Shown: positions 7,142 to 39,378 of the stretch, in pieces
How the letters are laid out: the number at the start of each line of letters is the position of its first letter
Position numbering within the stretch: position 1 is the stretch's first letter
DNA from: a virus
Reading direction: 5' to 3' (one strand)
IMG/VR virus record: IMGVR_UViG_3300043331_001419
Location: 1 to 39,378 of that record
Length of the DNA stretch: 39,378 nt
The notes under the pieces: model-generated
Told to the model about the DNA's origin: nothing
Databases searched by the model: none
Seen by the model: only the letters and a program-made list of their open reading frames with translations
Translations under genes and position numbers: made by a program

Positions 7142-7160
7142 GGTCCGTCTGTGACGGACC
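7142..7160. terminator. Hairpin GGTCCGT-ctgtg-ACGGACC between convergent operons
   Basis: Read directly, in the 110-nt gap between the plus-strand stop (7109) and the minus-strand stop (7220). No clear U-tract. Confidence 0.4.
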
Positions 7161-7219
7161 GCCGACGGCGCGATCGGGGGGTGGAGCACTCGGGCCCCCG
7201 GGTCGCGCCGTTGCTGCGT

Positions 7220-7797: not shown

Positions 7798-8000
7798 TGG
7801 AACCTCCGGAGCGGGGGGCGGGCGCGCCGACGCGGCGCAGGACGCGGCGTGAAGTCGTAGAGCGTGGCGCCGATCACGACGCCGACGAGGCCGCGCGCGC
7901 ACGCGATGCGCACGAGGTCGACGCGGCGGAGTCGCCCGGGTCGGCGCAGACGAATGGCCGGGACGCGCGGGCCGCGGCGACGCACCAGGCGCAGCGTCAT
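7794..8000 (-). CDS. Arg-rich protein with one TM segment (68 aa)
   Basis: ORF track. ATGA overlap at 7997-8000 and GTGA overlap at 7794-7797. TM candidate: LVRIACARGLVGVVIGATLY. Confidence 0.5.
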   Translation of the reverse strand: MTLRLVRRRGPRVPAIRLRRPGRLRRVDLVRIACARGLVGVVIGATLYDFTPRPAPRRRARPPLRRFQ

Positions 8001-8215
8001 GGGCGCTGCCTCTTGGCCCGCTCCCGCAGCGCGCGCTCATGGCGGAGGTCGCCCCACGCCCGCCCGCAGGGCGCCCCGCGGCGCCGGCACCCCGCGCACA
8101 GGTGGCGCGTGTCGCAGCCGTCCGTCGGGCAGCGCCGGCCGCACGCCTCCGGGCAGCGGTGCCGGACCTTGTCGACGATCGTGAGAAACCGGGCGCGGAT
8201 CTCCGCCGGCGTCAT
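7997..8215 (-). CDS. Cys-rich protein (72 aa)
   Basis: ATG 8215 is in an ATGA overlap. Sequence: MTPAEIRARFLTIVDKVRHRCPEACGRRCPTDGCDTRHLCAGCRRRGAPCG... Confidence 0.6.
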   Translation of the reverse strand: MTPAEIRARFLTIVDKVRHRCPEACGRRCPTDGCDTRHLCAGCRRRGAPCGRAWGDLRHERALRERAKRQRP

Positions 8216-8730
8216 GGCGCCTCGGCCGGCACGCGGGCCACGCGCTCGACGTGGATCGACAGGGGCGGGAACCCGGTCGACGGCAGGCGGAGCATCGCGA
8301 GGTCGCCCCACTCGGCTGTGCACGGCGGCGGCAGGATACGCACCCGGCGTTCGGTGGCGTCGCGCACGGGCGCGCGCAGCAGCACCTGCCTCAGCTCACG
8401 CACGTCGGCGCGCGCCTGCGCGACCTCCTCGTGCACGGGATCGATGAGGTGCCGGAGGTCCGTCATGAGGTCGGCGCGCGCCTGGCGCATCGCGGGGCCG
8501 ACGTTGTCCAGGTGCTCGCGCAGGTGCTTCTCGTGCGCGGCGTGCGCGGCCTGCAGTTCGGCCACGTCCGTCTTCGTCGCCCACGGGATGACGGACGACG
8601 CCGTGACGAGCGCGCCGGCGCCGGCGACCAGCATGGCGATGGCGCGCACGAACCAGTGCGCGGCCAGGCGCGCGAGCGGCGACGGGCTAGCGGGCGGGGC
8701 CTCGGAGGAGCGCGAGCACGTCGGGTCCAC
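8212..8730 (-). CDS. Membrane-anchored coiled-coil protein (i-spanin-like architecture)
   Basis: ORF 8212..8796. The start is uncertain; I chose GTG 8730 after GGAAGGG. TM: AAHWFVRAIAMLVAGAGALVTASSVI. A helical region follows (ELQAAHAAHEKHLREHLDNV...ARADVRELRQVLL). Confidence 0.55.
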   Translation of the reverse strand: MDPTCSRSSEAPPASPSPLARLAAHWFVRAIAMLVAGAGALVTASSVIPWATKTDVAELQAAHAAHEKHLREHLDNVGPAMRQARADLMTDLRHLIDPVHEEVAQARADVRELRQVLLRAPVRDATERRVRILPPPCTAEWGDLAMLRLPSTGFPPLSIHVERVARVPAEAP

Positions 8731-8983
8731 CGTCAGAGCCCTTCCAATCAGAGTCACAGCGCGCCCGACGCGGGCGCTCGTCGACCACGTCGTCAATCGG
8801 CACCAACACGCCGACGATCCCGGGCGGATGGTCGGCCAGATGTGCCGCGTGCTGTGCGCACACGGGCCAGAGCGTGAGCCAGCCGCGCGAGGTCCGCACG
8901 CGGAAGACGTGCGTCACCGGGGCGGCGTGGCAGCGCGTCACGTGCGAGGTCGGAAAGCGGCAAAGCGCGCCCGGCCACGTCAT
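8687..8983 (-). CDS. Hypothetical protein (98 aa)
   Basis: ATG 8983 is in an ATGA overlap. Sequence: MTWPGALCRFPTSHVTRCHAAPVTHVFRVRTSRGWLTLWPVCAQHAAHLADHPPGIVGVLVPIDD... Confidence 0.6.
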   Translation of the reverse strand: MTWPGALCRFPTSHVTRCHAAPVTHVFRVRTSRGWLTLWPVCAQHAAHLADHPPGIVGVLVPIDDVVDERPRRARCDSDWKGSDGGPDVLALLRGPAR

Positions 8984-9345
8984 CCGAGGGCCTTGTACTT
9001 GTCGACGACGCCCTGCTTCACCTGGGCGATGGTGAGCGCCGGCAGCGCGTGCAGGGCGCGCAGCGCGTTGAGCTGCTCGCGGACGTAGAGCACGGCCGCC
9101 TGCAGCGCCCGGTTCGTGTCGAACTCGCGGATGCCGTTGGCCTGGGCGCGCTCGTCCGCGGTGGGCGGCACATGCGCGGCGATCAGCGCGTCCACCTGGG
9201 CGTCCGTGAGGTCCTCGGCGCCGAGGATGCGAACGACGCCGGCGGACTCGATGAGGCCGCGGAACGCCGACGGCGACTGCGCCACGAACTCGCTGTGGAG
9301 CTTCGTCAGATCGAACGGCTGCGTCAGGACCCGGGTCCTCTCCAT
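8980..9345 (-). CDS. Hypothetical protein downstream of the tail fibre (121 aa; fibre-assembly position)
   Basis: ATG 9345. Sequence: MERTRVLTQPFDLTKLHSEFVAQSPSAFRGLIESAGVVRILGAEDLTDAQVDALIAAHV... Confidence 0.65.
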   Translation of the reverse strand: MERTRVLTQPFDLTKLHSEFVAQSPSAFRGLIESAGVVRILGAEDLTDAQVDALIAAHVPPTADERAQANGIREFDTNRALQAAVLYVREQLNALRALHALPALTIAQVKQGVVDKYKALG

Positions 9346-9353
9346 GTCGTCCC

Positions 9354-10727
9354 TCACCCTCGGATGGTGGCGGTGATCGTGGTGCGGCTGCCGGCGGCGC
9401 CGCTGCCCTCGATCGTGAGCGCGTTGGCCGAGGCGCCGGCCAGGAGCGTCGCATAGTGCCAGCCCTCGGTCAGCCGCGCGACGACGTGATTGCTGAACAT
9501 GCCGGCGGAGACCGAGTCGTCCCACCGGCCGGCGGTGTCCTCGGCCGTCGTGTCGTCGATCCCGATCGAGGTGCGGCCGGTCCCGGCGCCCGTCATCACG
9601 CACCCGCCGTGCGCCTGGATGATGACGTCCTCGTCGACCCACGTCACGAACTCCACGCGGCTGCCCACGGCCATCTCGTCGAGTCCGGTGCCGGTGGTGT
9701 TGACGCTCGCCCCGAAGTTCGCGCGCGCCGTCTTGGTCCGCCGGGAGTACGGGAACCATGAGATGACCAGGCGCTTGTTGTCGGCGTCCATGAACTGGCC
9801 CGGCGTGGTGGCGATGGTGATGACGAACCCCACGAGCGTGCGCGTGGCGTCGCCCGACTTCACCTCCACGCCCCATGTCGCGTCGGGCTCGTGCGCCGTC
9901 GTCGACAGCTCGAGCACGGTGCTGCCGAGGCTGTCGTAGGCGTAGACGTAGTAGCCCGTGGTCGCCGCGAGCCCCGTGTTGGCGATGGTGAGCGCGGCGG
10001 GGATCGCGCGCCGCGTCCAGGTGCTGCCGACCAACAGCGGGATCACGCCGACGCCGAGCGACAGGCTGGTGCCGCTCGCGACCGCGAGGATCGGCGTGCC
10101 GAGCGTCGACGGCGGGACCCAGAGCAGGCCGTCCGTCTGCGCCGCGGCTGCGGCCAGCACCTGGCCGTCCGCGCCGACGGCCTTGCGCGCGGCCACGCCC
10201 GTGGCCCCGCCCACGAGCACGTCGCCCTTGGTGGTGATGGGGTCGGCGTAGGTCCCGCTCGCCGCCAACGCGACCAGCTCGAGGCCCGTGGCCCCGCCGT
10301 TGACGCGCAGGTAGCGGTTGGCGACGAGGTCGGGGAAGGTCACGCCGCTGAACAGGCTGGCGGTGCCGAACTTCACGGCGCGGCCGACGGTCTCGTTGAG
10401 CTGCTGCACCAGGCGCGTGACCTTGTCGAAGGCCCCTTCGACCGTCTGCGCCGGCAGCGGATCGTTCTCGACGAGGTCGACGGCCTGCGTCATGGGCGCC
10501 GCGGAGATCAGGCTCACGGCGGCGCCGCTCGCGGGCGCGGTCGTGAACGTGACGCTGCCGCCCGCGGCCTCGCCGACGCCGGCGACGGTGTAGCCGCTGG
10601 CCTGGAGGACGCCGCCCACGTAGACGGCCATGTCGGTGGCGACCAGGCACTTCCAGGTGTAGGCGAAGGCCGTGGTGACGCCGTTGCCGGTGTAGTTGTT
10701 CCGGGTCGTCGTGGTCGCGATCGTCAC
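9354..10727 (-). CDS. Tail fibre protein (T7 gp17 position)
   Basis: GTG 10727 follows GGGAGA, right after the TAG of the upstream gene. N-terminus: VTIATTTTRNNYTGNGVTTAFAYTWK. Central motif: TTKGDVLVGGATGVAARKAVGADGQVLAAAAAQTDGLLW, typical of phage fibres. Confidence 0.8.
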   Translation of the reverse strand: MTIATTTTRNNYTGNGVTTAFAYTWKCLVATDMAVYVGGVLQASGYTVAGVGEAAGGSVTFTTAPASGAAVSLISAAPMTQAVDLVENDPLPAQTVEGAFDKVTRLVQQLNETVGRAVKFGTASLFSGVTFPDLVANRYLRVNGGATGLELVALAASGTYADPITTKGDVLVGGATGVAARKAVGADGQVLAAAAAQTDGLLWVPPSTLGTPILAVASGTSLSLGVGVIPLLVGSTWTRRAIPAALTIANTGLAATTGYYVYAYDSLGSTVLELSTTAHEPDATWGVEVKSGDATRTLVGFVITIATTPGQFMDADNKRLVISWFPYSRRTKTARANFGASVNTTGTGLDEMAVGSRVEFVTWVDEDVIIQAHGGCVMTGAGTGRTSIGIDDTTAEDTAGRWDDSVSAGMFSNHVVARLTEGWHYATLLAGASANALTIEGSGAAGSRTTITATIRG

Positions 10728-10729
10728 CG

Positions 10730-13700
10730 CTATCTCCCGATCGTCAGGCTGCCGACGGTCAGCGCCGCCGCCCGCCGCTGCACGTACGCGAGGTGCTTCT
10801 GCACGAGGTCGTCGTCCTCCCCGAACAGGCGCGCGCGCGCTCCCTGCCGGTGGGCGCCGATGACGTGGCGGATCATGAGTGCCTTGCCGCCGTCGGGCCC
10901 GTCGCTGGCGCTCTGATAGACCGGACTCTCGATGAGCGCGGCCAGCTCGTCGCGCAGCCCGGCGCCGGCGAGCTGCACGTAGCGGTCGTACTGCGCGGGC
11001 GAGAGCTCGACGCCCTCGATGGCCCGCGGCGCCTCGAGGCGGATCGACGGCGGCCGCCGCCCCTCGATCACGCGCGAGGGCATCGACACGTTGATCCGGT
11101 GCCGCGCAATCTCCGCGCTGACGACGTCGTCCTTCACGGTCGACGTGTAGATCGGGGAGACGAGGTCGTGGCCGAGCCCGCCCTGCAGCAGGATCGGCTC
11201 GCCGAAGATGTTGCGCCGCGGGGGCAGCCCGGAGGCCCAGCCGGGCACGCCCTGCTGGATCGCCTCGAGGACCCCGCGCGCTTCGCGCACCGTCGGGTCG
11301 ATCGTGCGCGCGATCTGCCGCAGGCCCGTCGGCACCAGCGTGCGTGCGAAGGACTGGACGTACTTCTGCATCCCGCGATCGGGATTCGACACCGCCTCGA
11401 TCGCGTCGCTGAGCCCCTGCAGATACGTCTTGTTGACGAGGGTCTTCGACAGCGCCAGGACGACGGCGGCGGCGACGTTGTCGGCCTGGACCTCGGGGAC
11501 CTGTCCCAGCATCTCCGCGGTGTCGGCCACGAGCCCGACGAGGGCGCCGACGGGATCCAGCCGATTGTAGGCGTAGTAGGTCTTGCCGACCTTGAGCGAG
11601 TACGGCTGCCAGCCGGTGTCGCGCAGCTCGCGCTTGAGGTCCGGGTCGCTCGGTCCGCCGCCCGTGATGAGCCCGGCGCCGGCCATCGCCGAGACGGTCG
11701 CGCCGACCATGAGGCCGAGCGACATGCGCGCCAGCGCCAGGTCGCGCGTCGGCCCCGGCTCGGCGAGATCCGCGCGGTATTGCCGGCTCAGCAGGTTCAG
11801 GCCCGGCGTGCGGTAGATCGTCCACTTCGCGATGTTCGTGGGCGTCTTGATGAAGGGCAGCACCAGGCGGGCGCCGGGGGCCGCGTTCATCGCGCGCATG
11901 AACGATTCACCGGCCTCGCCGAGATCGTTCTGGAAGGTCTGCAGCAGCATGAACGACTCCGCGCGCGCCTTCACTTCGGCGGGCGGGTTGGCCTCGATCT
12001 GCGCCACGCGGCGCACGAGCGCGTCGCCATCGAGCCCCTCGGCGGTGGCCTGGCGCAGCGCCAGCGCCTTGAGCTCCATGCGGTAGTTGACGGCCTTGAA
12101 GAACGCGTCGGTCGCCATCATGAGGCGCGACGGCATCCGCACCGCGGTGCCGAGGTAGTCGATCGCCCGGCCCACGGAGCCGTTCGGGTCCTGGCCGAAC
12201 GCGCCGGCCGTGATCGCGTGCTTCGGGAGATCGAGCTTCGTGCCCTGCAGCGGATCGGCGGCCATGGCCCACGCCTGCCGCGCCAGCCGGAGCGCGTCAG
12301 CGAAGCCGTCGACCATGCCGCGGAGCATCGCGGAGGCCTCGCCCTTGACCACGCTCGTGTCGACGTCGGTGTGGAACTGTGCCGCCAGGGCGCGCTCGGG
12401 GATGGCCCAGAGCGTCGTGAGCGTGTTGCTGAGCGGATTGACGACCTGCGTCTGCGGCCCGGACAGCAGCCCGTTGATCCAGGCCTCGTAGAGCGCGTGC
12501 TGGCCGGCGCGCAGCAGGTTGACCGCCTGCTTGGCCATCACCCGCTGCTGCTTCACCGTGAGCGTGTCCAGGCGCGCGAGGAACGCGTCCACGTTCACGT
12601 CGCTGGCGTCGCGCATGGTGTCGGCGAGCTGCACGAGCTCGCGGGCATCGAACGGGGCGGCGCCGCTCTGCGACACCTCCTGTTGCATCCGCATCCCGCG
12701 GCCCAGGATCGACTCGCCCACTTCGACGTTGGCGGCCAGGTGGCCGGCGACGGTGAAGGCACGCCAGACGTCCCACTTGGCGCCGGGGTCGGTCTTCGCG
12801 CGCTCGCGCGTGTCCTTGAGGAATGCCGTGGCCGCGTCGCGCCAGTCTGCGAGTGCGCGGAGCGTGCCGGGCAGCTCGGCGCCCGGTGCCGCCTCCGGGT
12901 TCCACGCGATCGCCGCCTCGAGGTCCGGCAAACGCGCGTGGCCGGCGGCGCGCATGTCGTTCACGGACTTCGTCGCGCGGTCGCTGGCGAGCCGGTCGGC
13001 GTGCATCTGGTTCACGGCCGCCGTGAGGTCCTTGAAGGCGGCCTCGCCGCTGACGTACTGGAGGTTCACGTGGAGCTTGTCACCGGGCTTCGGTCCCTGC
13101 GGCGCTCCGGTCGACGACTCGCCGCCGCTCGGCGGCTGCGTCGTCGCGCTCGCACTCGTGCCCGGCGCGCCCGTCCCCTGGAACGCCGAGCTCGTCGGGC
13201 CGCCAGGGCCCTCGATCGACATGGAGCCGGCTTCATTGAGCGCGAGGCGGCCGGCGCCTGCCTGCGCGCCCTTCGCCGTCCCGAGCGCCACGTTCGCACC
13301 GCCGCCCGTGAGTATCGCCGCCGGCACGACGTTCAGGCCGCGCTTGGCGGCCTCCATGATCCCGGTCCAGTCCTCGCCGAGAATCACGGCCTCGGTCGGC
13401 TCCTCGAGCCACTCGGTCAACCCCTCGCTCACGCCGGCGACGCCCGCGCGCCTGAGCGCCGGCCCGACGCCAGCCCTGGCCGCGACCTTGAACGCCTGGC
13501 CGAGCGACACGGCGTTGAGTCCGGCGGACGCCAGGCCCATGAACGCCAGCGCCTTGAGCGCGTCCTCGTCGGAGCCGCCGCGGCGCTTCACCTCGTCGTA
13601 GGTCGACGCGCCCTCGAGCGCGCCGCCGACCGTGCCGCCGGTCACCGCCGCGCCGATGCGCGCGAGCTTGAGCGCCACGGCCGGCGACCAGCCGATGAGC

Positions 13701-30347: not shown

Positions 30348-31702
30348 CGGCCGTCCCCCCAGGCGTTGACGCGGCGCGTGGCCGCGCGCGCGTAGCTGTC
30401 GCGGCCCGGGCCCGACCGGCGCATCGGGTCGAAGGCGCTCCGCGCGTGGCTCTGCCGCGGCCCGGCGTCGCCTGACCGCAGGCCCATCGCGAGGTAGCGG
30501 AAGGCGTCGGCCCCGTGGCTCGTCCAGTCGTGCAGCGGCCGGTCGGCGTAGCTCTGCGTCGCCGGATTCCACGCGCGCCGGTACTGGCTCAGCGCGTCGA
30601 CCAGGCGCCGCGTCTTGCCTTCGTCGAACCAGCACCGCGCGAACAGGCGCCGGGCGGCCTCGATGCCGGGCTCGACGTCGGCCTGGCCGAGCACACGCAC
30701 GCGCTTGCGACCCAGCTCGCGGAGCTGCTGCGCGAGCGTCTTGCCCGTGGCGAGCTGCTTGGCGCCGCCGTCGTGGGGCAGCACGTCCTCGCCCCACAGG
30801 TACGGGCGGCGGTCGAGCTCGCGCGCGTAGTGGGCGAGCTCCTGGCCGTGGTCCTCGAGGTAGTCGATCACGTGCACCTCGGTGCCGGCCTGCTGGACCA
30901 TCAGAATCGCGGTGGAATCCGAGATGCCGAGGTCCCAGAAGGTGTCGACGGGAAGCGCGGGCTGCCAGGGCACGGTGCGGATGCGGCCTTCGGCGCGCAC
31001 CTGCTCCATCTGCCGCGCGTAGTAGGCGCCCTGGATCGCCGCATCGAAGGAGCACTCGAACTCCTGGGCGTAGAGGTCCGGCCCCATCTCGTCGCGCGCG
31101 ATCGCCAGCTCGTCGGCCGCGACCACGCCCGTCTCGCTCGCGCGGTAGAGCATCGCCAGCACGTCGTCGCGCTCGCGCGCCTTCTCGTAAAGCTCGTGGA
31201 AGTGGTTGCGCCCGAGCGGCGTGCCAAGGAACACGGCGAAGCCCTGCCGGTCCACGAGCGTCGGCCGGATCACGGCCTGCCAGACCGAGGGGTTCATCAG
31301 CGCGTACTCGTCGAGCACGACGCCGTCGAGGTAGATGCCGCGCAGGCTGTCGGGGTTGTCGGCGCCGAGCAGCGTGATGCGCCGGTCGCCGGGCAGCTCC
31401 ACACGCAGCTCCGACTCGTGGAAGCGCGCGCCCTCGATCGGGCCGGCGAACTGGCGCATGTAGTCCCACGCGATCGCCTTGGCCTGCTTGTAGAGCGGCG
31501 CCATGTAGGCGTAGCGCGGCGAGGGGTGCGGGCACTCGATGGCCGACCGGATCAACTGGTTCACGGCCATCACAGACTTTCCAAAGCGTCGGTGGACGAC
31601 GACGACGGCGGCGCGGGGGCGCTGCCGCTCGAAGGCGTCGTGGAAGGCGCGCTGCAGGCGTCGGGGGGCGTAGGGGAGGGTGACGACGCGCTCGTGTCCC
31701 AT
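30344..31702 (-). CDS. terL: Terminase large subunit
   Basis: ORF track 452 aa. Walker A: VVHRRFGKS. Also ...ITLLGADNPDSLRGIYLDGVVLDEYA (Walker B-like) and a nuclease-half motif VDTFWDLGISDSTAI. Confidence 0.9.
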   Translation of the reverse strand: MGHERVVTLPYAPRRLQRAFHDAFERQRPRAAVVVVHRRFGKSVMAVNQLIRSAIECPHPSPRYAYMAPLYKQAKAIAWDYMRQFAGPIEGARFHESELRVELPGDRRITLLGADNPDSLRGIYLDGVVLDEYALMNPSVWQAVIRPTLVDRQGFAVFLGTPLGRNHFHELYEKARERDDVLAMLYRASETGVVAADELAIARDEMGPDLYAQEFECSFDAAIQGAYYARQMEQVRAEGRIRTVPWQPALPVDTFWDLGISDSTAILMVQQAGTEVHVIDYLEDHGQELAHYARELDRRPYLWGEDVLPHDGGAKQLATGKTLAQQLRELGRKRVRVLGQADVEPGIEAARRLFARCWFDEGKTRRLVDALSQYRRAWNPATQSYADRPLHDWTSHGADAFRYLAMGLRSGDAGPRQSHARSAFDPMRRSGPGRDSYARAATRRVNAWGDGR

Positions 31703-32004
31703 CGGATCACCAGCGGCCCGGCGAACTTCGCGGTGACGCGCACGCGCTTCTGGCCGCGCAGGCCGGCGAGCTCATACAGCGCCTTCGCGGCTTCGAGCCG
31801 CGTCACGTGATCGGGCGTTCCGTACTTCGGATGGTCGGCGTTGAGCGCTTCGCGGTGACGCCGCACCGCCCGGCGCAGATCGCGCGCCGTCAGCCCGGCG
31901 ATCCGGATCATGCGGTCGATCACCTGATCGCCGGTCACGATCCGCGCAGCCTTCCGTGGGCGGGCAGCAGACGGCGTCGAGGCAGACGCAGACGTTTCGG
32001 TCAT
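31570..32004 (-). CDS. Putative terminase small subunit / DNA-binding protein (144-aa ORF; last 133 nt overlap terL)
   Basis: ORF track. It sits immediately upstream of terL. Sequence: MTETSASASTPSAARPRKAARIVTGDQVIDRMIRIAGLTARDLRRAVRRHREAL... The Ser/Pro-rich tail lies in the terL overlap. Confidence 0.45.
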   Translation of the reverse strand: MTETSASASTPSAARPRKAARIVTGDQVIDRMIRIAGLTARDLRRAVRRHREALNADHPKYGTPDHVTRLEAAKALYELAGLRGQKRVRVTAKFAGPLVIRWDTSASSPSPTPPDACSAPSTTPSSGSAPAPPSSSSTDALESL

Positions 32005-32208
32005 CGGGCACGGGGCGGGACCGCGGCGGGGAGAGTTCGAGCGTCAGCCGCAGCGAGGGGCCGAGCGAGCGAGCCGAGCGACGCACCAATCAGAAGCGTC
32101 CTCACACCAGATGACGGCGTCCGTCCGCCGCGCGGCCGTCACAGCGCGCAGCGTCGACACGCCGACTCTACAACGAGGTCCGCGGGCGATCTGGTGCGGG
32201 CGGCTCAG

Positions 32209-32502
32209 CTACGAGCGTTGACGGTAAGTGTCAGCGGTAAATGTGGGGCGTCGGCCGTTTGGCTCTGGACGACATTTCACACGGGGCTCCGGTCGCGGGA
32301 TCAACGCATGGAGCGCCGCCATGTCCTGCTCGGTCAGCACCCGACGCCGCTGCGGCCCGCGGAGCTTCACGTACATCGGCTCCGAGAACTTCGCCGCGTG
32401 CGACGACAGCAGGTTCCAGATGGTCCGCCGTGAGCGCCCGAGCAGCAGCGCCGCGGCCTCCACGGTGAAGGCCTGCGCCCAGGGGTCATCGGCATCGCGC
32501 AC
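32209..32502 (-). CDS. HTH DNA-binding protein (97 aa) between attP and the packaging genes
   Basis: ORF track (GTG 32502). Sequence: FTVEAAALLLGRSRRTIWNLLSS. G/C third-position bias drops in the last ~25 codons. Confidence 0.6.
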   Translation of the reverse strand: MRDADDPWAQAFTVEAAALLLGRSRRTIWNLLSSHAAKFSEPMYVKLRGPQRRRVLTEQDMAALHALIPRPEPRVKCRPEPNGRRPTFTADTYRQRS

Positions 32503-32546
32503 CCGTCAAGTGTGCACGGATCGCGGCCGACAACGTGTATAGACAG

Positions 32547-32738
32547 TGACCCCAAACTGACCCCGGACGTCCAGATTCCGAGGTCGCGCAGGGGTCTTTC
32601 AGGGCAGGGGACGAGCCCGGAAACCCGCGCCAAGCGCGCTGTCGGGGTCCGTGCGAGACTGCCACCATGTACAACGGGGACACGATAGTTCCGCGGATTT
32701 CGCGGGTTTTCGAGGGTCACTGACCCCGGACTGACCCC
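32547..32738. mobile_element. Putative attP region flanked by two pairs of phased TGACCCC sites
   Basis: TGACCCC at 32547-32553 and 32558-32564, and again at 32721-32727 and 32732-32738 (11-bp phasing, same orientation). The second pair lies in the last codons of int. Lower-GC non-coding DNA sits between the pairs. Confidence 0.45.
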
Positions 32739-33880
32739 AGACGCGCCGCGAAGTCCACCACGTTCGTGCCCCGCCGCCGCTCCTCGCGGTACGCCTCGAG
32801 CGCACGCAGCGCCGCCCGCTTCTCGTCGACCGACACGTCGTCGTAGTCTTCGTGGATCGCGTCCGAGCGGTGCCCGACGATCGCCTTCGACACGAGCTTG
32901 TGCACACCGAGCAGGCGCAGGCCGTGCACGACCGCGCGTCGGCAATCGTGGATGCGCACGCCTGGCAGTCCGGCCTTCGCGCGCGCGACCTTCCAGCGCC
33001 CGCGGAAGCCGGCGGTGATGCGCCGGCCGTCCTTGTGAAACACCCACGGTGAATCGAGCCGCCGCTTGCCGCGCCGCGCCTGGATCACGCGCTGGATCGC
33101 GCCCTCAAGCGGCAACACGCGCGGGTCGTTGTTCTTCGTGTCCGGCAACCGGATCACGCCCTCGTCCCAATCGACGTACTCCCACCGCACCGACATGACC
33201 TCGTCGTACCGCCAACCCGAGGCGAACGTGAACTCGCCCAGCTCGCGGTAGATGTCGGGGTCGCCGTAGCGGAAGCCGCCGAGGTGCGCGGCGATGCGGT
33301 CGAACGCATCGACGTCGACACGCGCCTTGCGCGGCGTGGGGCGCTTGAGGCTCGGCACGTAGGGCAGGGGCTCCGTGAGCCGCCGTTGCCGGAGCGCGAC
33401 CTGGAGCGCGGCGCGCAGATGCGCCAGCTCGCGGCCCACCGTGCCGCGGCTGACCGTCGTCGCCTTCGCGCGCGGGCGCGGGCCACCCGTGAGCGCGAAC
33501 GAGTCGAGCCGCTGCGTGACGTAGGCGTTCAGGATCTCGACGTCACGCAGCTCGTCGACGCGCCGATGCCCAAGCGCGACGCGCACAGGGCGCAGGTGCG
33601 CCACGATGGTGTCGACGCGCTTGAGCTCCATCTGCTCGGCGCGCGCCACGTACCCGTCGAGCACGGCGGCGACCGTCAACGCCTCCGGGCGCTTCGTCTG
33701 TCCCGCGACGACGGCGCCGACACGCCGCATGAGCAGATCGCGCGCATCCTGGCGGGTGACGCGCGCCGCAGGCTTGCCGAGCGCCTCGGCGACCGACTCT
33801 TCCTTGCGCTCCCCGTTGATCCGGTAGCGGATCTGATAGCCGCCGCCCTTGCGCTTGCGAATCGACCCGACGCCGCGCAT
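32717..33880 (-). CDS. int: Tyrosine integrase
   Basis: ATG 33880 follows GGGAGGG. Sequence: MRGVGSIRKRKGGGYQIRYRINGERKEESV...; ...ASGWRYDEVMSVRWEYVDWDEGVIRLPDTKNNDPRVLPL...; ...RIHDCRRAVVHGL...GHRSDAIHEDY (R, HxxR and Y catalytic pattern). Confidence 0.9.
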   Translation of the reverse strand: MRGVGSIRKRKGGGYQIRYRINGERKEESVAEALGKPAARVTRQDARDLLMRRVGAVVAGQTKRPEALTVAAVLDGYVARAEQMELKRVDTIVAHLRPVRVALGHRRVDELRDVEILNAYVTQRLDSFALTGGPRPRAKATTVSRGTVGRELAHLRAALQVALRQRRLTEPLPYVPSLKRPTPRKARVDVDAFDRIAAHLGGFRYGDPDIYRELGEFTFASGWRYDEVMSVRWEYVDWDEGVIRLPDTKNNDPRVLPLEGAIQRVIQARRGKRRLDSPWVFHKDGRRITAGFRGRWKVARAKAGLPGVRIHDCRRAVVHGLRLLGVHKLVSKAIVGHRSDAIHEDYDDVSVDEKRAALRALEAYREERRRGTNVVDFAARLGSVRGQ

Positions 33881-33905
33881 CCGTGAGCCCTCCCGTGCTC
33901 CGGGT

Positions 33906-34286
33906 TCACCGCACGTCCCGACCGCGCTTATACACGAAGTCGGCGATGCGGCGCGGGTCAAAGACGAGGCGGTCGGTCCCGTTGTTGACCGTGAGCGCCC
34001 GGACGAACGGATCGCGCTGCACGAGCTTGCGCAGCGTCGCGGGCTTCATGCCGAGCCGTCGCGCGGCTTCGGCCAGCTCGATCAGCGCGCCGTCGTCCGC
34101 GACGGACCCGCTCGCCGGCGACGCGACCACGCGCGCCGCGAGCTGGACGATCAGTGCTGCCGCCTGGCTCGCGAGCGCCCCGCACACGGGCGCGGGCAGG
34201 CGCTCGATGAGCCGCGGATCGGCGGCGACCTCGGCGAGCGTGGGGACGGCGACGAGCGAGGCGCGCGGCTCGGCGATGGCGTTCAC
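33906..34286 (-). CDS. Excisionase-family HTH protein (126 aa)
   Basis: GTG 34286 forms a GTGA overlap with the small upstream ORF. C-terminus: LIELAEAARRLGMKPATLRKLVQRDPFVRALTVNNGTDRLVFDPRRIADFV. Confidence 0.65.
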   Translation of the reverse strand: MNAIAEPRASLVAVPTLAEVAADPRLIERLPAPVCGALASQAAALIVQLAARVVASPASGSVADDGALIELAEAARRLGMKPATLRKLVQRDPFVRALTVNNGTDRLVFDPRRIADFVYKRGRDVR

Positions 34287-34408
34287 GGCTCCGGCCCCCC
34301 GCCGACGTCCGCGAGGCGCTCGCCGAGCCACGACACGGTGATGGCGGGCAGCGCGAGCAGGGCGCCGAGCAGCATCAGCGCGCGGCCGAGGGCGCGGCGG
34401 ATCAGCAT
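34283..34408 (-). CDS. Possible 41-aa membrane peptide
   Basis: Hand translation: MLIRRALGRALMLLGALLALPAITVSWLGERLADVGGGPEP. ATG 34408. Its stop is coupled (GTGA) to the HTH gene. Confidence 0.4.
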   Translation of the reverse strand: MLIRRALGRALMLLGALLALPAITVSWLGERLADVGGGPEP

Positions 34409-34421
34409 GCGAGTTTTCCGC

Positions 34422-34449
34422 TTGACGCCAGTGGTGGCGGTGATATCAT
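34422..34449 (+). promoter_or_regulatory. Near-consensus sigma70 promoter TTGACG-16-TATCAT with operator-like palindromes
   Basis: TTGACG 34422-34427 and TATCAT 34444-34449. CGCCA-gtgg-TGGCG (34426-34439) lies in the spacer, and TGATATCA (34441-34448) overlaps the -10. The predicted start is near ATG 34456. Confidence 0.55.
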
Positions 34450-34455
34450 GAAGAC

Positions 34456-34920
34456 ATGGAGGGCATGATGATGGCGACGACGACGAACGCAGTCAGCGAG
34501 CGCGAGCGGTATCCCGATCATGCCGTGCGGTGCGATGGGTGCGGAGCGATCTGCGTCCGCGCGATGGTCAGTCGCCTCCGCTCCGCCGACGCTTCGACGC
34601 CCGACGGCATGACGGACGTGGCGTCGTACTTCGAGCCGACCCCGCGCTACGCCCCGATTGCGGGGCTGTCCACGCCCGGTCGCCTGACGTGGTGCTGCGA
34701 GTGCCACCGTGCAGGGTCGTATTGCCTGCCCGGCGACCACGACGCGCGCAAGCCCGGCGAGCGCGACGACCCGTCGGGCCTCATCCGCGTCCGTCCCGGC
34801 GAGCGCGCGCCGCGCTGCTTGTTCGAGGCCGGCGCCTACGGGCGCTGGAATGGTCGCACGTGCGCCCTCTCGGCGCGCGGCGTCCCCCACCACGCGATGC
34901 AGTGCCGCAAGGAGGGCTAG
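34456..34920 (+). CDS. Cys-rich hypothetical protein (about 150 aa), first gene of the antisense operon
   Basis: ORF track. Alternative ATGs at 34465, 34468 and 34471 follow GGAGGG (34458-34463). Motifs: RCDGCGAIC and TWCCECH. Confidence 0.65.
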   Translation: MEGMMMATTTNAVSERERYPDHAVRCDGCGAICVRAMVSRLRSADASTPDGMTDVASYFEPTPRYAPIAGLSTPGRLTWCCECHRAGSYCLPGDHDARKPGERDDPSGLIRVRPGERAPRCLFEAGAYGRWNGRTCALSARGVPHHAMQCRKEG

Positions 34921-34923
34921 GCG

Positions 34924-35172
34924 ATGGACGAGAGACTGGTCACGCAGACGTGGGCGGTGTGGGGTGTCGGCGCGTCGAGCGTGCGCTACATCCGCGAGGC
35001 AGACGACACGATCGCGGCGCGGCAGATCGCAGCGGCGCACGGGTTCGACGTCGACCAGGCCGAGGCGTGGGCCGTCGAGGTCGAGGCTGACGAGCACTCG
35101 CTGGACGCGCACACGCGGCACGATTCCGCCACGGTCGGATTCGCGGCGTTCCCATTCGACGTGGAGGGCTAG
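34924..35172 (+). CDS. Very acidic small protein (82 aa; 16 D/E vs 5 R, no K)
   Basis: ORF track. ATG 34924 follows AAGGAGGG. It is flanked on both sides by the identical 17-mer GGAGGGCTAGGCGATGG. Confidence 0.7.
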   Translation: MDERLVTQTWAVWGVGASSVRYIREADDTIAARQIAAAHGFDVDQAEAWAVEVEADEHSLDAHTRHDSATVGFAAFPFDVEG

Positions 35173-35175
35173 GCG

Positions 35176-35391
35176 ATGGCGACGAAGCCCCGCCGCCGCC
35201 CCGCCCCCGCCGACGACGCCGAGCGTCACGCGACGACGCTCCGGCTGCCGCCCGCCCTCGTGCGCGTCGCTGCGGTCGCCGCGGCGTCGCGACGCATGAG
35301 CCTCAACGCCTGGTTGATCGAGGCCGCGCGCGCCCACGCGCTGCACGCCGCCCAGCGCGACGCGAGCGTGCGTGCGGCGCTCGAGGCGTGA
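35176..35391 (+). CDS. Ribbon-helix-helix (CopG/Arc/HicB-C-like) DNA-binding protein (71 aa)
   Basis: ORF track. The basic N-terminal tail is followed by TTLRLPPALVRVAAVAAASRRMSLNAWLIEAARAHA, a beta-strand, helix, helix pattern. Confidence 0.7.
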   Translation: MATKPRRRPAPADDAERHATTLRLPPALVRVAAVAAASRRMSLNAWLIEAARAHALHAAQRDASVRAALEA

Positions 35392-35395
35392 CGCG

Positions 35396-35581
35396 GTGTC
35401 TGACCACGCGCTCATCGCGCTCATCGCCGTCGGCGGCTTCGCGCTCCAGATCACCGGCCTCGTCATCCTCGGTGTGTATCTCAGCGCCCAGCTCCGGCGC
35501 ACGACCGACATCGCGCGCGCCGTCGGCGGCCTCGTGATCCAGGAGACGGACAAGCTCCGCGCGCTCCTCGGGTCGCGCTGA
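35396..35581 (+). CDS. Small membrane protein (61 aa)
   Basis: Tail of ORF 35372..35581. GTG 35396 follows GAGG. Sequence: VSDHALIALIAVGGFALQITGLVILGVYLSAQLRR... Confidence 0.55.
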   Translation: MSDHALIALIAVGGFALQITGLVILGVYLSAQLRRTTDIARAVGGLVIQETDKLRALLGSR

Positions 35582-35582
35582 C

Positions 35583-35972
35583 TCACGGCGCCTCCACGTC
35601 GCGGCCTTCGGCTGCCGTCCACGTCGCGGGCTCGTCGGCCGTCGCGGCGCCGAGCGGCACGTCGACGGGCGGCGCCACGCGGGCGAGGGCGGCGCGGATT
35701 GTGTCGCACATGACCTTCGTGGTGGCCTCGTCGGACCCGGTGAGCGCCTTCCACTCCGCGCGCCTCTCCTCGGTCCAGTCGCCGCCGCCGTGGAACAGGA
35801 GCGGCAGCCGCAGCGCCGCCACGAGCGCGTCAATCACGGCCTCGCGACGATCATCCGCCGGCTCCCCTGAGAACAGGGCCACGCACTCGCGCGCTTGCAT
35901 CTCCGTGTGCTCTCCTGCCGGCCGGCGACACACCCGACACGGATACGTCTCGCCCGGCGTCGGCGCGCTCAT
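35583..35972 (-). CDS. Hypothetical protein (129 aa)
   Basis: ATG 35972 follows GGAAGGAGAG and is in an ATGA overlap. Sequence: MSAPTPGETYPCRVCRRPAGEHTEMQARECVALFSG... Confidence 0.65.
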   Translation of the reverse strand: MSAPTPGETYPCRVCRRPAGEHTEMQARECVALFSGEPADDRREAVIDALVAALRLPLLFHGGGDWTEERRAEWKALTGSDEATTKVMCDTIRAALARVAPPVDVPLGAATADEPATWTAAEGRDVEAP

Positions 35973-36418
35973 CGTGTCTCTCCTTCCACGCGGGCGAGGG
36001 CGGCGCAGGCCGCAGCGAGGGCGGCATCCAGTGCCTCTGCGCCGCACTCGCACTGCCAGTCGCCTTTCCACTGATCCGGTGACGCCGCGCGCGCCTTGGG
36101 GCATCGGCAGTCGTGTGCCGCCACACACGAGAACCGTCCCCGGTTGCCATCGCAGGCGTCGAACGCCTCGATTAACCGTCGCACCGCCGCCACGAGCGCG
36201 TCACGCTGGGCGGTCAGGGCGGCCACTTGTACCTGCCAGTACGTCTCAACTTCGTTCCGCCAGTCGTTCGCGTCACGGACGACGTACTCCGCCTTCTCCC
36301 GCTCGGCGGCGAGGGCGCGGGCGACGACGCGCACGAGCCCGTCCTCGGTGCGATGACGCAATCCCTCGTTCACGACATCACGCGCAGTTGCTAGGTCGTG
36401 TTCCGTCGGCTTACTCAT
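35969..36418 (-). CDS. Hypothetical protein (149 aa)
   Basis: ORF track full length. Sequence: MSKPTEHDLATARDVVNEGLRHRTEDGLVRVVARALAAEREKAEYVV... Confidence 0.7.
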   Translation of the reverse strand: MSKPTEHDLATARDVVNEGLRHRTEDGLVRVVARALAAEREKAEYVVRDANDWRNEVETYWQVQVAALTAQRDALVAAVRRLIEAFDACDGNRGRFSCVAAHDCRCPKARAASPDQWKGDWQCECGAEALDAALAAACAALARVEGETR

Positions 36419-36455
36419 CGCGCGGCCTCGGGCGGCTCCCCCATCCGCCCCTCCG

Positions 36456-36698
36456 TCATCGCGCGGCCTCGTCGACCGGCCAGCGCGGGCCGCACAGCAC
36501 GCGCGGCTCGCGCCGCTCGTTATGCGGATGCTGGTACGCGTCCCCGGGGTAGCTGAACGCCGGCGTCGGCCGCGTGTCGCAGGCGGCGCAGATCACGCGA
36601 TGGCAGCCCTGGCACTCGTCGTCGCGGCGACACGCGGGGCCGCCGCAGTGCTCGCAGGTCGCGTGCGGGAAGTGGCCGCAGACCTGGCAGCGGGTCAT
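36456..36698 (-). CDS. Four-CxxC zinc-finger protein (80 aa)
   Basis: ATG 36698 forms an ATGA overlap with the rusA stop. Sequence: MTRCQVCGHFPHATCEHCGGPACRRDDECQGCHRVICAACD... Confidence 0.65.
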   Translation of the reverse strand: MTRCQVCGHFPHATCEHCGGPACRRDDECQGCHRVICAACDTRPTPAFSYPGDAYQHPHNERREPRVLCGPRWPVDEAAR

Positions 36699-37171
36699 CG
36701 CTCGCCGCCGGCCGCCACGAGCGCCCCCTGCGCCGGCGCCACGCGCAGCGGCAGCGCGTGCGCCACGCGGATGTGGACGCCGGGCGACGCGCCGAACCGC
36801 TTGCTCACGCTGAGGTCGACGATCTGGGCGTCGTCGCGGTAGATCAGACCCGCCGCCGCGTCCATCACGCCCTTCGCGAGATTGTCGACGTCCCGCCGGT
36901 GCGCCATCGGGTACTCCACGCGCTTCGGCAGCGACGCCGGTCGCGGCAGCGTGAACGCGAGCGTCACGCACAGCGGCCCGTCCACCGGCGCCGGCGGCTT
37001 GTGCGCGACGAGCTGCGCCTCCACGGTCCTCTTCCAATCTTTGTCCTCGGCGCGCTCGTACACGGACGCCTTGACGACGCCGTTCGGCAGCCGGAACGCG
37101 CGCGCCCGCGGCCGCCCCTGCGGCACCGGCAGGCCGTACACGCGCACGTCGAGCACGACGGAAAAGGTCAC
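36695..37171 (-). CDS. rusA: RusA-family Holliday-junction resolvase
   Basis: GTG 37171 is in a GTGA overlap. Sequence: ...VYGLPVPQGRPRARAF...DKDWKRTVEAQ...GPLCVTLAFTLPRP...RRDVDNLAKGVMDAAAGLIYRDDAQIVDLSVSKRF. Confidence 0.85.
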   Translation of the reverse strand: MTFSVVLDVRVYGLPVPQGRPRARAFRLPNGVVKASVYERAEDKDWKRTVEAQLVAHKPPAPVDGPLCVTLAFTLPRPASLPKRVEYPMAHRRDVDNLAKGVMDAAAGLIYRDDAQIVDLSVSKRFGASPGVHIRVAHALPLRVAPAQGALVAAGGER

Positions 37172-37428
37172 GCTGGCTCTCTCGCCACGTACGCAGGCTC
37201 CCACTCAGGCGGCGAGCCGCCGCCAACGAAAATGGTGCTCGCGTAGCAGAGCTCGCCGCGCCGAATCTCCGTGCCGCACAGATCGCAGACGTACCCGGCC
37301 TTCGCGACGCCGCGGACGACACGCTCGTACTCGGGCGGCTCGCCGTGCGGGCCGACATCCGCGAACACCGTGCGGGTGCCGAGCGGTCGTCCCTTTCCGC
37401 ACGCTTCGCACAGGATTTGTCGTGTCAC
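37168..37428 (-). CDS. Zinc-ribbon protein (86 aa)
   Basis: ORF track (GTG 37428). Motifs: LCEACGKG and VCDLCGTE. Confidence 0.65.
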   Translation of the reverse strand: MTRQILCEACGKGRPLGTRTVFADVGPHGEPPEYERVVRGVAKAGYVCDLCGTEIRRGELCYASTIFVGGGSPPEWEPAYVAREPA

Positions 37429-37955
37429 GCCGCCCGCCGCCGCCGGAGCGTGCGCCGCGCGATGCGTGCGAGGTCGGCCGCGAGGTCGGCGAGGATGCGC
37501 GCTACAGGATCAGCCGGAGCGGGATGCCGTCGGGGGTTGGCGCGCGACACTCGCGCAGCTCGCGCTGGAACTGCTCCAGGTCGGCGTCGGCCTCGACCTG
37601 GATCCGCGTGATGTACGCCGTCACAGGGATCCCCGTCTCGGTGTGCCCCTCCCACGTTCGCGCCTCGACGCCGTTGAGCGTCACGATCTTCGTCGTGCTC
37701 TCCAGCCGAACGATCATCGGTTGCCTCCTCGGGTCTGTGCCTCTTGATCCCGTTGCGGTCCAGCCCGTACGGGTCGCGCCGCACCGCTTCCCGCGCCAGC
37801 GCCTCGCGCATGACGTCGCGCGGCACGCCGTGCTCGTACAGAGCGTGCGACTCCGCGGCGACGATCGTGTCGAACACGAGCCCGCAGCGCACGTAGCGCT
37901 CGCGCGCCTCGATCGCGGCGACGGCCGCGGCGGCGCGTGCCTTCGTCGACGCCAT
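37425..37955 (-). CDS. Hypothetical protein; 176-codon ORF whose middle overlaps the 71-aa gene
   Basis: ATG 37955 overlaps the upstream TGA by 1 nt. The N-terminal ~70 codons (MASTKARAAAAVAAIEARERYVRCGLVFDTIVAAESHALYEHGVPRDVMREALAREAVRRDPYGL) and the last ~25 codons (ARILADLAADLARIARRTLRRRRAA) have coding-like third positions. There is no stop until TGA 37427-37425, which is in a GTGA overlap with the next gene. Confidence 0.5.
   Translation of the reverse strand: MASTKARAAAAVAAIEARERYVRCGLVFDTIVAAESHALYEHGVPRDVMREALAREAVRRDPYGLDRNGIKRHRPEEATDDRSAGEHDEDRDAQRRRGANVGGAHRDGDPCDGVHHADPGRGRRRPGAVPARAARVSRANPRRHPAPADPVARILADLAADLARIARRTLRRRRAA
37502..37717 (-). CDS. Hypothetical protein (71 aa), nested inside a longer ORF in another frame
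   Basis: ATG 37717 follows GAGGAGG. Third positions are nearly all G/C. Sequence: MIVRLESTTKIVTLNGVEARTWEGHTETGIPVTAYITRIQVEADADLEQFQRELRECR... Confidence 0.7.
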   Translation of the reverse strand: MIVRLESTTKIVTLNGVEARTWEGHTETGIPVTAYITRIQVEADADLEQFQRELRECRAPTPDGIPLRLIL

Positions 37956-38350
37956 CACGCCGCCTCGCTCACCGCCGGCAACTCCCCCTGCCGCTCCTCC
38001 GGCCGGAGCGTCCGCGGCGTCCCGACCACCTCGTCCGTGTCCAGGCGCCGTACGCGCTCGACGCCGGCGGCGTAGTCGCGCTCGATCACGCACGCCACGT
38101 CGCGCTCCTCGGTGCCGCGCCGGTAGCGGCCGGCGAGATCCGCCTGGGCGGCGACGAGATCCGCAAGCCGCCCCTTCGCCTGCTCGCGCCGGATCTTCTC
38201 CGCCGCCTCCTCGGCCTGGACGGCGGCGAGCGCGGTCACGAGCGCGTCGCCGACGGCGTGCAGCTCCTCGAGCGTGAGCCTGACCGGCAGCGCCCGCGTG
38301 TCCTCGCGCACGCGCTCCCAGCGCTCGGGCTGGCCGTTCGTCTCTGGCAT
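37955..38350 (-). CDS. Hypothetical coiled-coil protein (131 aa)
   Basis: ORF track full length. Sequence: MPETNGQPERWERVREDTRALPVRLTLEELHAVGDALVTALAAVQAEEAAEKIRREQAKGRLADL... Confidence 0.7.
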   Translation of the reverse strand: MPETNGQPERWERVREDTRALPVRLTLEELHAVGDALVTALAAVQAEEAAEKIRREQAKGRLADLVAAQADLAGRYRRGTEERDVACVIERDYAAGVERVRRLDTDEVVGTPRTLRPEERQGELPAVSEAA

Positions 38351-38351
38351 G

Positions 38352-38711
38352 TCACGCCGCTCCTTTCTCGTCGTCGACCGTCAACGTCGTCTGCCCGGTG
38401 TCCGTCCACCGCACCACGGGCCGCTCGCGATAGGGCCGCAGCGCCGCTTCGCACGCGCGGCACTGCCCGCCGACCGCCTGCACCGCCGCGAGGGTCACTG
38501 CGCACGCCTGGCACGCGACGAGCTTGAGCGTCCAGAATCGGATCGACCCGTCGGGCGCGGCCGCGCGCGCCCGCTCGCGCGAGGCGTAGCGCACGGCCTC
38601 GTCGAGCGCGGTCGACCAGATCCCGCCGGCGCCCACGGCCGGGGCCGGCGTCGCGTAGAAGAGCCACGCCCCCACGCCCGCGGCGCGGTGGCCGAGGACG
38701 AAGGCGGTCAT
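38352..38711 (-). CDS. Hypothetical protein with two CxxC motifs (119 aa)
   Basis: ATG 38711 is in an ATGA overlap. Sequence: MTAFVLGHRAAGVGAWLFYATPAP...VACQACAVTLAAVQAVGGQCRACEAA... Confidence 0.6.
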   Translation of the reverse strand: MTAFVLGHRAAGVGAWLFYATPAPAVGAGGIWSTALDEAVRYASRERARAAAPDGSIRFWTLKLVACQACAVTLAAVQAVGGQCRACEAALRPYRERPVVRWTDTGQTTLTVDDEKGAA

Positions 38712-38932
38712 CGCGCGCGCCCGTTCCCCGTGTGCAGCGGGACGACGCGCGGCGAATTCGTGAAGAACACGCCGCCCGTCGCGAGGTACTGCGCGCACGC
38801 CATACAGAGCGGCGTGGCCCCGTACACCGCCCAGGTGCCGACGCGCTCGCAGCTCTCGCACGTCCGGAACGAGCCCATCGCGCGCGGGCCGTGCGTCGGA
38901 ACGTGGCGCGGCCAGGGGTCGTTGGGCGTCAC
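38708..38932 (-). CDS. Zinc-ribbon protein (74 aa)
   Basis: GTG 38932 is in a GTGA overlap. Sequence: ...FRTCESCERVGTWAVYGATPLCMACAQYLATGG... Confidence 0.55.
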   Translation of the reverse strand: MTPNDPWPRHVPTHGPRAMGSFRTCESCERVGTWAVYGATPLCMACAQYLATGGVFFTNSPRVVPLHTGNGRAR

Positions 38933-39276
38933 GCGCCGCGCTCCTCGAACAAGTCCGTTTGCCCCGGCGCTTGGCCGATCAGCCGATTGCGCTGCCCCTC
39001 CAGCGCCGTCAAGTGGTTCGCGATCGCCGTCATCTCGTCGGAGATGCGCGCGCACTCGTCGAGCGCCTCGTTGCGCCGCACGGTCCACGCCAGCAGTTCC
39101 TCGCCGTCCAGCGGCCGACGCGCGTGGCGCGCCCACAGCACGATCGTGTCGCGCCGCTTGGTCGCGGAGAGCAGTCGATCCCCCGCGGACCTCAACTGGC
39201 GCTCCACAGTCTCAATCGCCGATTCGATCGCAGCCAGGGCGTCGTCGGGGTCACGTCGCTTGCCACTCCGAGCCAT
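38929..39276 (-). CDS. Hypothetical protein (115 aa)
   Basis: ORF track. ATG 39276 lies 5 nt after GGAGG (rc of 39282-39286). Confidence 0.7.
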   Translation of the reverse strand: MARSGKRRDPDDALAAIESAIETVERQLRSAGDRLLSATKRRDTIVLWARHARRPLDGEELLAWTVRRNEALDECARISDEMTAIANHLTALEGQRNRLIGQAPGQTDLFEERGA

Positions 39277-39378
39277 CGGCGCCTCCGACCGCTCGTCGAA
39301 ACTCGTCCGCGACCCCGCGTCGACGCCGCTCGTGCGCGGCGCGCTCCGTGTCGCTGACCTCCGGCATCGGCGGCGCCG
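39251..39378 (-). CDS. 3-prime end of the junction-spanning replication-module gene (same gene as 1..773)
   Basis: Bases 39282-39378 duplicate 1-97. The frame continues GGC GCC GAT GGC TCG GAG TGG CAA GCG ACG TGA, ending at 39253-39251. Confidence 0.7.
   Translation of the reverse strand, partial: APPMPEVSDTERAAHERRRRGVADEFRRAVGGADGSEWQAT
39282..39378. repeat. Direct terminal repeat, copy 2 (identical to 1..97)
   Basis: See copy 1. Confidence 0.97.

Follow-up and report, generated by a model that had tools for sequence, protein, structure and literature searches.

Morons, as described by Hendrix and colleagues, are autonomous promoter–gene–terminator units inserted between the operons of temperate phages. 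In the immI region of phage P22 (Pant-arc-ant), Arc comes first in the operon, with a large antirepressor as the cargo. Here, we report a four-gene operon (g1 to g4) on the plus strand of the virus record IMGVR_UViG_3300043331_001419 (IMG/VR; positions 1 to 39,378, i.e., the whole stretch of 39,378 nucleotides that was analyzed and is called the window below), which resembles these and other described systems in part. It codes for a Cys-rich protein, a very acidic protein, a ribbon-helix-helix (RHH) protein, and a small membrane protein. All sequences considered here are metagenomic. Among the anti-CRISPR (acr) and anti-CRISPR-associated (aca) loci, Aca14 is an experimentally validated regulator of the RHH type with an inverted repeat over the -10 (bioRxiv 10.64898/2026.07.27.740549). 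The PeSL cassettes of T4-type phages combine an early promoter with a terminator stem-loop, each open reading frame (ORF) being its own transcription unit (PMC2839356, PMC4122927).

With acr-aca loci, above all those with Aca14, the operon shares a strong promoter of the host type, small ORFs differing from element to element, a small 3′ DNA-binding regulator in the same operon, a palindrome overlapping the -10, and a regulator and promoter that are kept while the cargo changes. This is in contrast to the cargo itself, in which no protein is homologous to a known anti-CRISPR or anti-defence protein (Pfam, PHROGs, NCBIfam, PDB); g3 is in no named Aca family and is an RHH protein whereas most Aca regulators are helix-turn-helix (HTH) proteins, the cargo is Cys-rich, and a gene for a membrane protein follows the regulator. 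The locus is like a moron in its own promoter, its orientation against the surrounding operons, its sharp boundaries, and its different neighborhoods, and unlike one in that it has no predicted terminator, carries its own regulator, and contains an internal exchangeable slot. In the PeSL cassettes, too, short conserved motifs flank small novel ORFs and the replacement breakpoints lie inside the motifs; here, in contrast, the motif is a 17- to 22-nt Shine-Dalgarno–stop–start junction within a single operon with one promoter, in a temperate high-GC phage, and only one swap is observed at the cassette. Because the conserved promoter, the variable small ORFs, and the conserved 3′ regulator are the acr-aca layout, an acr-aca-like reading is partly supported. 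We tentatively prefer, at somewhat less than an even chance, the reading that the locus is an RHH-autorepressed mobile accessory operon with an exchangeable cargo slot, acting as an acr-aca-type anti-defence or host-takeover locus; the architecture part of this reading we consider probable. This would be a claim on how the locus works and not on its membership in the acr-aca loci.

Cargo replacement within a conserved promoter–leader–RHH frame

Phage backbones that are unrelated to each other have the promoter, the leader, and the RHH gene in common, whereas the cargo between leader and RHH gene is replaced wholesale. Three configurations were found. In configuration A, the integrase side is followed by the cassette (the window and L042, an independent contig which confirms the integrase-side junction of the window). 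In configuration B, an HNH/small-terminase side is followed by the same cassette, 100% identical from 34417 (contigs L034, L036, and L005, L006, and L007). When L005, L006, L007, and L034 were compared with the window by BLAST, the alignment began at 34417 every time, and in L034 and L036 the HNH flank is followed by the g1 to g4 of the window and ∼4 kb of early genes, all 100% identical. Configuration C (L015) has the same HNH/small-terminase flank, promoter, and leader as L034 and L036, 99.5% identical up to window position 34484; its promoter and leader differ from those of the window only at 34439, 34443, 34454, and 34469. What then follows are three ORFs of 86, 84, and 59 aa (4, 3, and 10 Cys, respectively, counted from the translations), which are unrelated to g1 and g2, and then an RHH gene, without g4. 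Homology of this sister array to the window resumes at ∼35160, just before the RHH gene. In the 34-kb JGI contig, g4 is likewise missing after the RHH gene. The RHH protein there, P0008, is the one homologue of g3 (78% amino-acid and 84.5% nucleotide identity), and the dN/dS of 0.41 between the two indicates purifying selection. The sister phage with P0008 has an HK97-type head and packaging module, and there the RHH gene closes an antisense island of a similar kind.

From these configurations we conclude that the cassette, including its promoter, moves between backbones, with one left boundary shared by A, B, and C, and that the cargo is replaced within a fixed promoter–leader–RHH frame. The breakpoints of the replacement coincide exactly with the leader motif (34484) and the junction in front of the RHH gene (∼35160). 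We considered the break at 34417 as an attachment site with host DNA beyond it and rejected this, as what replaces the integrase flank is again phage DNA, an HNH/terminase module; the 34417 junction contains neither a tRNA nor an Rfam family. The earlier note on this DNA had described the operon as standing beside the integrase, a classic place for a moron. This is true for the window and for L042, but in at least five other contigs the cassette adjoins the HNH/small-terminase module. Its behavior as a moron-like mobile accessory unit, with its own promoter and a left boundary at 34417, is supported.

Window positions 34417–39378 are 100% identical to L034 1983–6944, RusA included. On its other flank, L034 has a packaging module of the HK97 type (HNH and a Terminase_4-family small terminase), and the window itself has podovirus-like structural genes. 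Identity falls to ∼90% just past the window start. From the sequences, this suggests that two phages of different morphotype that occur together exchanged DNA very recently. The 59-aa protein of L015 (1801–1980; 10 Cys, many Asp, MATREHYRADGTCDCDVYGDGDGNCTGCDCCEW...) has no family match, and all three ORFs of the sister array are without a match in the family libraries or the PDB.

The ORFs of the operon are joined by short repeats. The 17-mer GGAGGGCTAGGCGATGG occurs in two exact copies in the window versus 0.14 expected even when three mismatches are allowed; in L015 it is exact at two of the three junctions and matches at 16 of 17 positions at the third, and a leader variant is also present. 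Such identical Shine-Dalgarno–stop–start junctions suggest translational coupling of the ORFs. The leader motif aligns with the g2/g3 junction as a direct repeat and is kept in L015 with one change; as it is a variant of the junction, the start of g1 is likely the ATG at 34471 (149 aa), although a leaderless start at 34456 may be used. A search of IMG/VR with the junction 17-mer gave 18 single matches, and one more for the longer pattern. All of these look like chance: none comes with an RHH gene or a cargo relative, and one is inside a portal-like gene.

Table 1 Features of the operon and its borders in the window
Feature	Position	Strand	Sequence	Description
Left cassette boundary (mosaic junction)	34417–34421	+		Homology starts at 34417, 5 nt upstream of the -35
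Sigma70-type promoter	34422–34449	+	TTGACG, 16-nt spacer, TATCAT	TTGACG at 34422–34427, TATCAT at 34444–34449
Palindrome 1	34426–34439		CGCCA-N4-TGGCG	Within the promoter
Palindrome 2	34441–34448		TGATATCA	Overlaps the -10
g1	34456–34920	+		154 aa if started at the first ATG, 149 aa if at the likely ATG (34471); cargo gene 1
Leader motif	34458–34479	+	GGAGGGCATGATGATGGCGACG	Variant of the inter-ORF junction; supplies the Shine-Dalgarno
Junction repeat 1	34911–34927	+	GGAGGGCTAGGCGATGG	Shine-Dalgarno, g1 stop, three bases, g2 start
g2	34924–35172	+		82 aa, very acidic orphan; cargo gene 2
Junction repeat 2	35163–35184	+	GGAGGGCTAGGCGATGGCGACG	Shine-Dalgarno, g2 stop, g3 start; right boundary of the cargo slot
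g3	35176–35391	+		71 aa, stand-alone RHH, basic N-terminal tail
g4	35396–35581	+		61 aa, one membrane helix
Convergent early operon, 3′ end	35583–35972	-		

The operon, its promoter, and its four products

The genome is 72% GC, so that the length of an ORF alone is no proof of coding. A 450-aa minus-strand ORF (34402–35754) runs over the whole block; its GC content at third codon positions (GC3) is only 0.72, and it was rejected as an artefact of the high GC. In exactly the frames of g1 to g4, GC3 is 0.90 to 0.94 (0.90 in g1 and g2, 0.94 in g4) and GC content at second codon positions is 0.45 to 0.64; therefore, the ORFs are genuine. The four genes are a real operon, with intergenic gaps of 3, 3, and 4 nt and with g1, g2, and g3 in one common reading frame, and its orientation opposes that of all neighboring genes. 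The four plus-strand genes spaced by 3 to 4 nt, which the earlier note had read from the DNA, are confirmed by these coordinates and by the codon-position GC, and its stand-alone antisense unit with a strong promoter of its own is likewise supported. One may suppose, given how rich high-GC DNA is in long false ORFs such as the 450-aa one, that g1 to g4 are chance ORFs as well and the promoter a chance match. We give practically no credence to this, and it is already contradicted: besides the GC3 in exactly the four frames, the g1 homologues keep their invariant Cys and His, g3 has a Pfam match and is under purifying selection, and the promoter is kept in another phage.

A promoter scan of both strands of the whole 39.4-kb window gave this promoter as the sole match (∼0.6 expected by chance), and so the rank of best sigma70 promoter in the genome, which had been claimed for it, holds. 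It matches 10 of the 12 sigma70 consensus positions, and the TG at 34441–34442 makes it an extended -10. The promoter–leader sequence is CCGCTTGACGCCAGTGGTGGC...GGAGGGCATGAYGATGGCGACG. Variant promoters in L015 and L006 carry G34439T and A34443C, with the -35, TG, and -10 elements unchanged.

The g1 protein has 10 Cys, including those in CDGCGAIC and WCCECH. The protein belongs to a phage-borne family that is very rare: a word-index search gave two relatives with 58% and 41% identity, and a full profile search with the family through 1.84 billion representatives gave four proteins in total, P0002, P0003, P0005, and P0006 being the only homologues found. The family alignment contains 9 invariant Cys and 4 invariant His (C21, C24, C28, C75, C76, C78, H79, C85, H90, C116, C131, H140, and H141), and two short members are without the central insert. 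These Cys and His residues are presumed to be metal ligands. Sequence and profile searches of the PDB were empty for g1, and likewise for g2 and g3, even at E ≤ 10. Structure prediction of g1 with three and then five sequences reached mean pLDDT values of 36.6 and 45.8, and both models were unusable; the better one, compared by Foldseek with the PDB and BFVD, had no match below E = 0.7, and TM-scores were <0.3. The CxxC...CCxCH pattern may recall a degenerate HNH domain. We rejected this candidate: no Pfam HNH match was found, hhalign aligned the g1 family to an HNH protein over 12 columns at 0.4% probability, and the short members of the family are without the Asp-His segment.

All g1 relatives are in phage-like accessory contexts. 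The relative with 41% identity (contig L001, a phage in a Ca. Binatia metagenome-assembled genome [MAG]) lies between the large terminase and portal genes, and the gene directly downstream of it looks RHH-like. In L004/L009, the g1 homologue opens an operon that diverges from a Cro-like HTH gene (weak, sub-threshold Pfam HTH/Cro matches); in L010, genes for an 87-aa protein and then for an RHH-like protein of 93 aa come after the g1 relative; and in L011, the relative is near an integrase fragment. Small candidate DNA-binding genes thus adjoin g1-family genes at three loci, i.e., L001, L004/L009, and L010. No conserved partner of g1 was found among the neighbors of its homologues. Of these neighbors, taken as candidate partners, only the 87-aa protein of L010 and an 85-aa protein of L011 are related to each other, and neither is related to g2, which has no significant similarity to the small proteins beside the g1 homologues. 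As a side observation, the L001 relative is held in a cargo island (5260–11103 of JBGPIK010000021.1) within a lambda-like phage region, which also contains GLF and TAGT sugar-modification (glycosyltransferase-type) genes, an Imm_superinfect membrane protein, and a gene with an MgsA_C domain.

The g2 protein (16 Asp/Glu, 5 Arg, net charge -11, pI 4.3) is the most acidic protein of the phage, ∼3 times more acidic per residue than any other. It matched only itself among 5.8 billion clusters and has no match in Pfam, PHROGs, NCBIfam, PADLOC, PDB, or the GenBank phages. The g3 protein matches the Pfam HicB family (PF05534; E = 1.2e-5) only at positions 21 to 50 of the 51-position profile, which bears out the earlier assignment to the RHH fold for the RHH part only. 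Its RHH stretch is preceded by only 20 basic residues, and the N-terminal neutralizing domain of HicB is not matched. The g4 protein has one hydrophobic helix (Kyte-Doolittle 19-residue mean 2.34) and is without a homologue in IMG/VR. The composition given for g1, g2, and g4 in the earlier note (Cys-rich, 16 Asp/Glu with 5 Arg, hydrophobic helix) was found correct, as was its statement that no known family beyond the RHH fold can be recognized: g1, g2, and g4 have no family match in Pfam, PHROGs, NCBIfam, or PADLOC. No tblastn match of g1, g2, or g3 was found in the GenBank phages, and IMG/VR scans with g1 to g4 and the integrase gave no relatives. A HicB split over g2 and g3, g2 supplying the N-terminal domain, was a further candidate; it was rejected as no Pfam match was found and g2 is not significantly similar to the small proteins beside the g1 homologues.

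Readings of the locus

If the locus acts against defence or in host takeover, host RNA polymerase would fire the promoter, upon phage entry or in the prophage, with no phage factor needed; g1 (presumably metal-binding) and g2 (acidic) would be effector cargo acting on host or competitor proteins or on DNA-binding machinery; a g3 RHH dimer would bind in or beside the promoter and shut the operon down; and g4 would be an extra membrane-acting cargo gene. We presume that g3 is the autorepressor; within the frame, its gene is the part conserved on the 3′ side. The stop codon of g4 is 1 nt from the stop of the convergent last early gene (35579–35585), and no terminator-like site is predicted in 33800–36200, so none between g4 and the convergent early operon; the transcripts of the two convergent units should therefore overlap, and shut-off by g3 would limit collisions between them. 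The junction repeats of 17 to 22 nt may provide short homologies for cassette exchange, aided by the RecE-like recombination genes of the phage. Selection for translational coupling, or an RNA-level signal, could account for the identical junctions instead of recombination.

Several observations weigh against this reading. Searches of Pfam, PHROGs, NCBIfam, PADLOC, the PDB, and GenBank phages showed no resemblance of any cargo protein to a known inhibitor, be it of CRISPR, of restriction, or of another kind, and, to our knowledge, a Cys-rich metal-binding cargo is not typical of the known anti-CRISPR proteins. No BLASTP alignment was obtained between g3 and Aca14, which match different Pfam families (PF05534 versus PF01402), and a gene such as g4 downstream of the regulator is atypical of the acr-aca layout. 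Both palindromes, which the earlier note had proposed as operator-like, are present where it had placed them, but they are short and near chance level (0.29 expected per window for CGCCA-N4-TGGCG and 0.07 for TGATATCA), and the variant promoter of L015 and L006 breaks one base pair in either of them, making them weak candidates for operators; in L006, the variant promoter occurs together with an unchanged g3. Only two arrays are known, so that the claim of a variable cargo rests on a single swap. The acr-aca reading had been put forward earlier from the DNA alone; its layout, with cargo swapped under a conserved promoter and RHH gene, is what we see, whereas no known inhibitor is encoded and g3 is unlike Aca14.

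The operon might instead be a moron expressed from the prophage for superinfection exclusion or defence (lysogenic conversion), which we regard as rather unlikely. In this case, the operon would stay on in the lysogen by virtue of its host-type promoter, g4, possibly together with g1 and g2, would block other phages or alter the envelope, and the RHH protein would set the level. Consistent with it are an orientation against every lytic operon, a place beside the integrase in the window, a promoter independent of a phage factor, a membrane helix in g4, and the g1 relative in a cargo island with Imm_superinfect and glycosyltransferase-type genes in the Ca. Binatia MAG phage. Against it, there is no PADLOC match, g4 is missing from the sister array and hence is not part of a conserved core, configuration B adjoins HNH/terminase and not an integrase, and small soluble variable ORFs with a 3′ regulator are more typical of counter-defence loci. 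Still less probable in our view is a module for the lysis–lysogeny decision or its timing, i.e., an immI-like antirepressor operon or an insulator made by convergent transcription. In the latter, transcription from the promoter, opposing the early operon at its end, would control read-through to xis-int in configuration A and to the HNH/terminase late genes in configuration B. No antisense island other than the cassette lies between the early operon and the minus-strand operon that comes next in either configuration, and the convergent stops 1 nt apart with no predicted terminator also fit this reading. A temperate phage with a strong promoter and a small RHH protein encoded behind it in an accessory region also recalls P22 immI, where a very strong promoter is autoregulated by such a protein of its own operon; RHH autoregulation, which here is presumed, would follow the Arc/Pant logic; the g1 homologue heading an operon divergent from a Cro-like HTH gene (L004/L009) is a further, weak sub-threshold hint. 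On the other hand, no significant similarity to Arc, Mnt, or Ant and no Ant, KilAC, or BRO domain was found here, PHROG Arc-like matches reach only E = 0.36 to 0.49, a separate plus-strand HTH repressor-type block is present at 5516–6181, and a regulatory core should keep its proteins, yet the cargo is swapped for unrelated ORFs.

A toxin–antitoxin or abortive pair, with g3 as the antitoxin and either g4 downstream or g2 upstream (the hicA-hicB order) as the toxin, seems to us very improbable, even though g3, in its RHH part, corresponds to the DNA-binding C terminus in the HicB family model, P0008 weakly matches TacA1, g3 is separated from both neighbors by only 3 to 4 nt, and g4 is small and hydrophobic. 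The 71-aa g3, with its 20-aa basic tail, matches the RHH part only and is without the toxin-neutralizing N-terminal domain of HicB; no HicA (PF07927) or other toxin family was found for g2 or g4 at E ≤ 1. HicA toxins are basic, whereas g2 is acidic (pI 4.3). Because the 78%-identical sister RHH gene has no g4 and is preceded by an unrelated ORF, no partner co-varies with the RHH gene, in contrast to HicAB, and the toxin–antitoxin possibility raised in the earlier note is not borne out.

Returning to the anti-defence or host-takeover reading, a bolder form of it, which we find doubtful, would make the locus the first cassette platform in temperate phages of high-GC bacteria, i.e., a fixed promoter/leader and RHH repressor framing an exchangeable slot of small, mostly metal-binding effectors, with exchange by recombination at the 17- to 22-nt Shine-Dalgarno–stop–start junction and with g1 and g2 as new anti-defence or host-takeover families. 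Such a platform would resemble a miniature integron but without an integrase. Searches for anti-defence genes use conserved regulators and promoters as bait, and this locus gives three possible baits, namely the RHH regulator, the near-consensus promoter, and the short junction repeat, in a lineage without annotation, the uncultured, 72%-GC, environmental phages. If the cargo does inhibit defences or host machinery, its genes, especially the g1 family, would be new families without relatives in cultured phages, and the junction-bounded swap would be a simple route for phages to shuffle small effector genes within a single operon.

Genome surroundings

The ends of the window (1–97 and 39282–39378) are identical over 97 nt; therefore, the assembly is circular, with a size of ∼39,281 bp, and a 267-aa gene spans the circular join. 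The genome encodes podovirus-like structural genes and a RecE-like exonuclease, and no tRNA gene was found in the window. Beside the cassette on the minus strand are a 41-aa membrane ORF, an excisionase-like HTH gene, and the integrase. The 41-aa ORF (34283–34408, minus strand; one hydrophobic helix, GC3 of 1.0) heads this excisionase-like/integrase operon, its start codon abuts the cassette boundary, and it is called as a gene in the independent JGI contig L042.

Three plus-strand ORFs at 9490–10593 (GC3 of ∼0.98) share their third codon positions with a minus-strand ORF (9354–11825) and were rejected as extra genes, being shadows of that ORF. The region between the large terminase and the integrase (31570–32716) is not empty: it contains a possible small-terminase-like ORF of 144 aa (31570–32004) and an ORF of 97 aa in which one segment is HTH-like (32209–32502), both on the minus strand.

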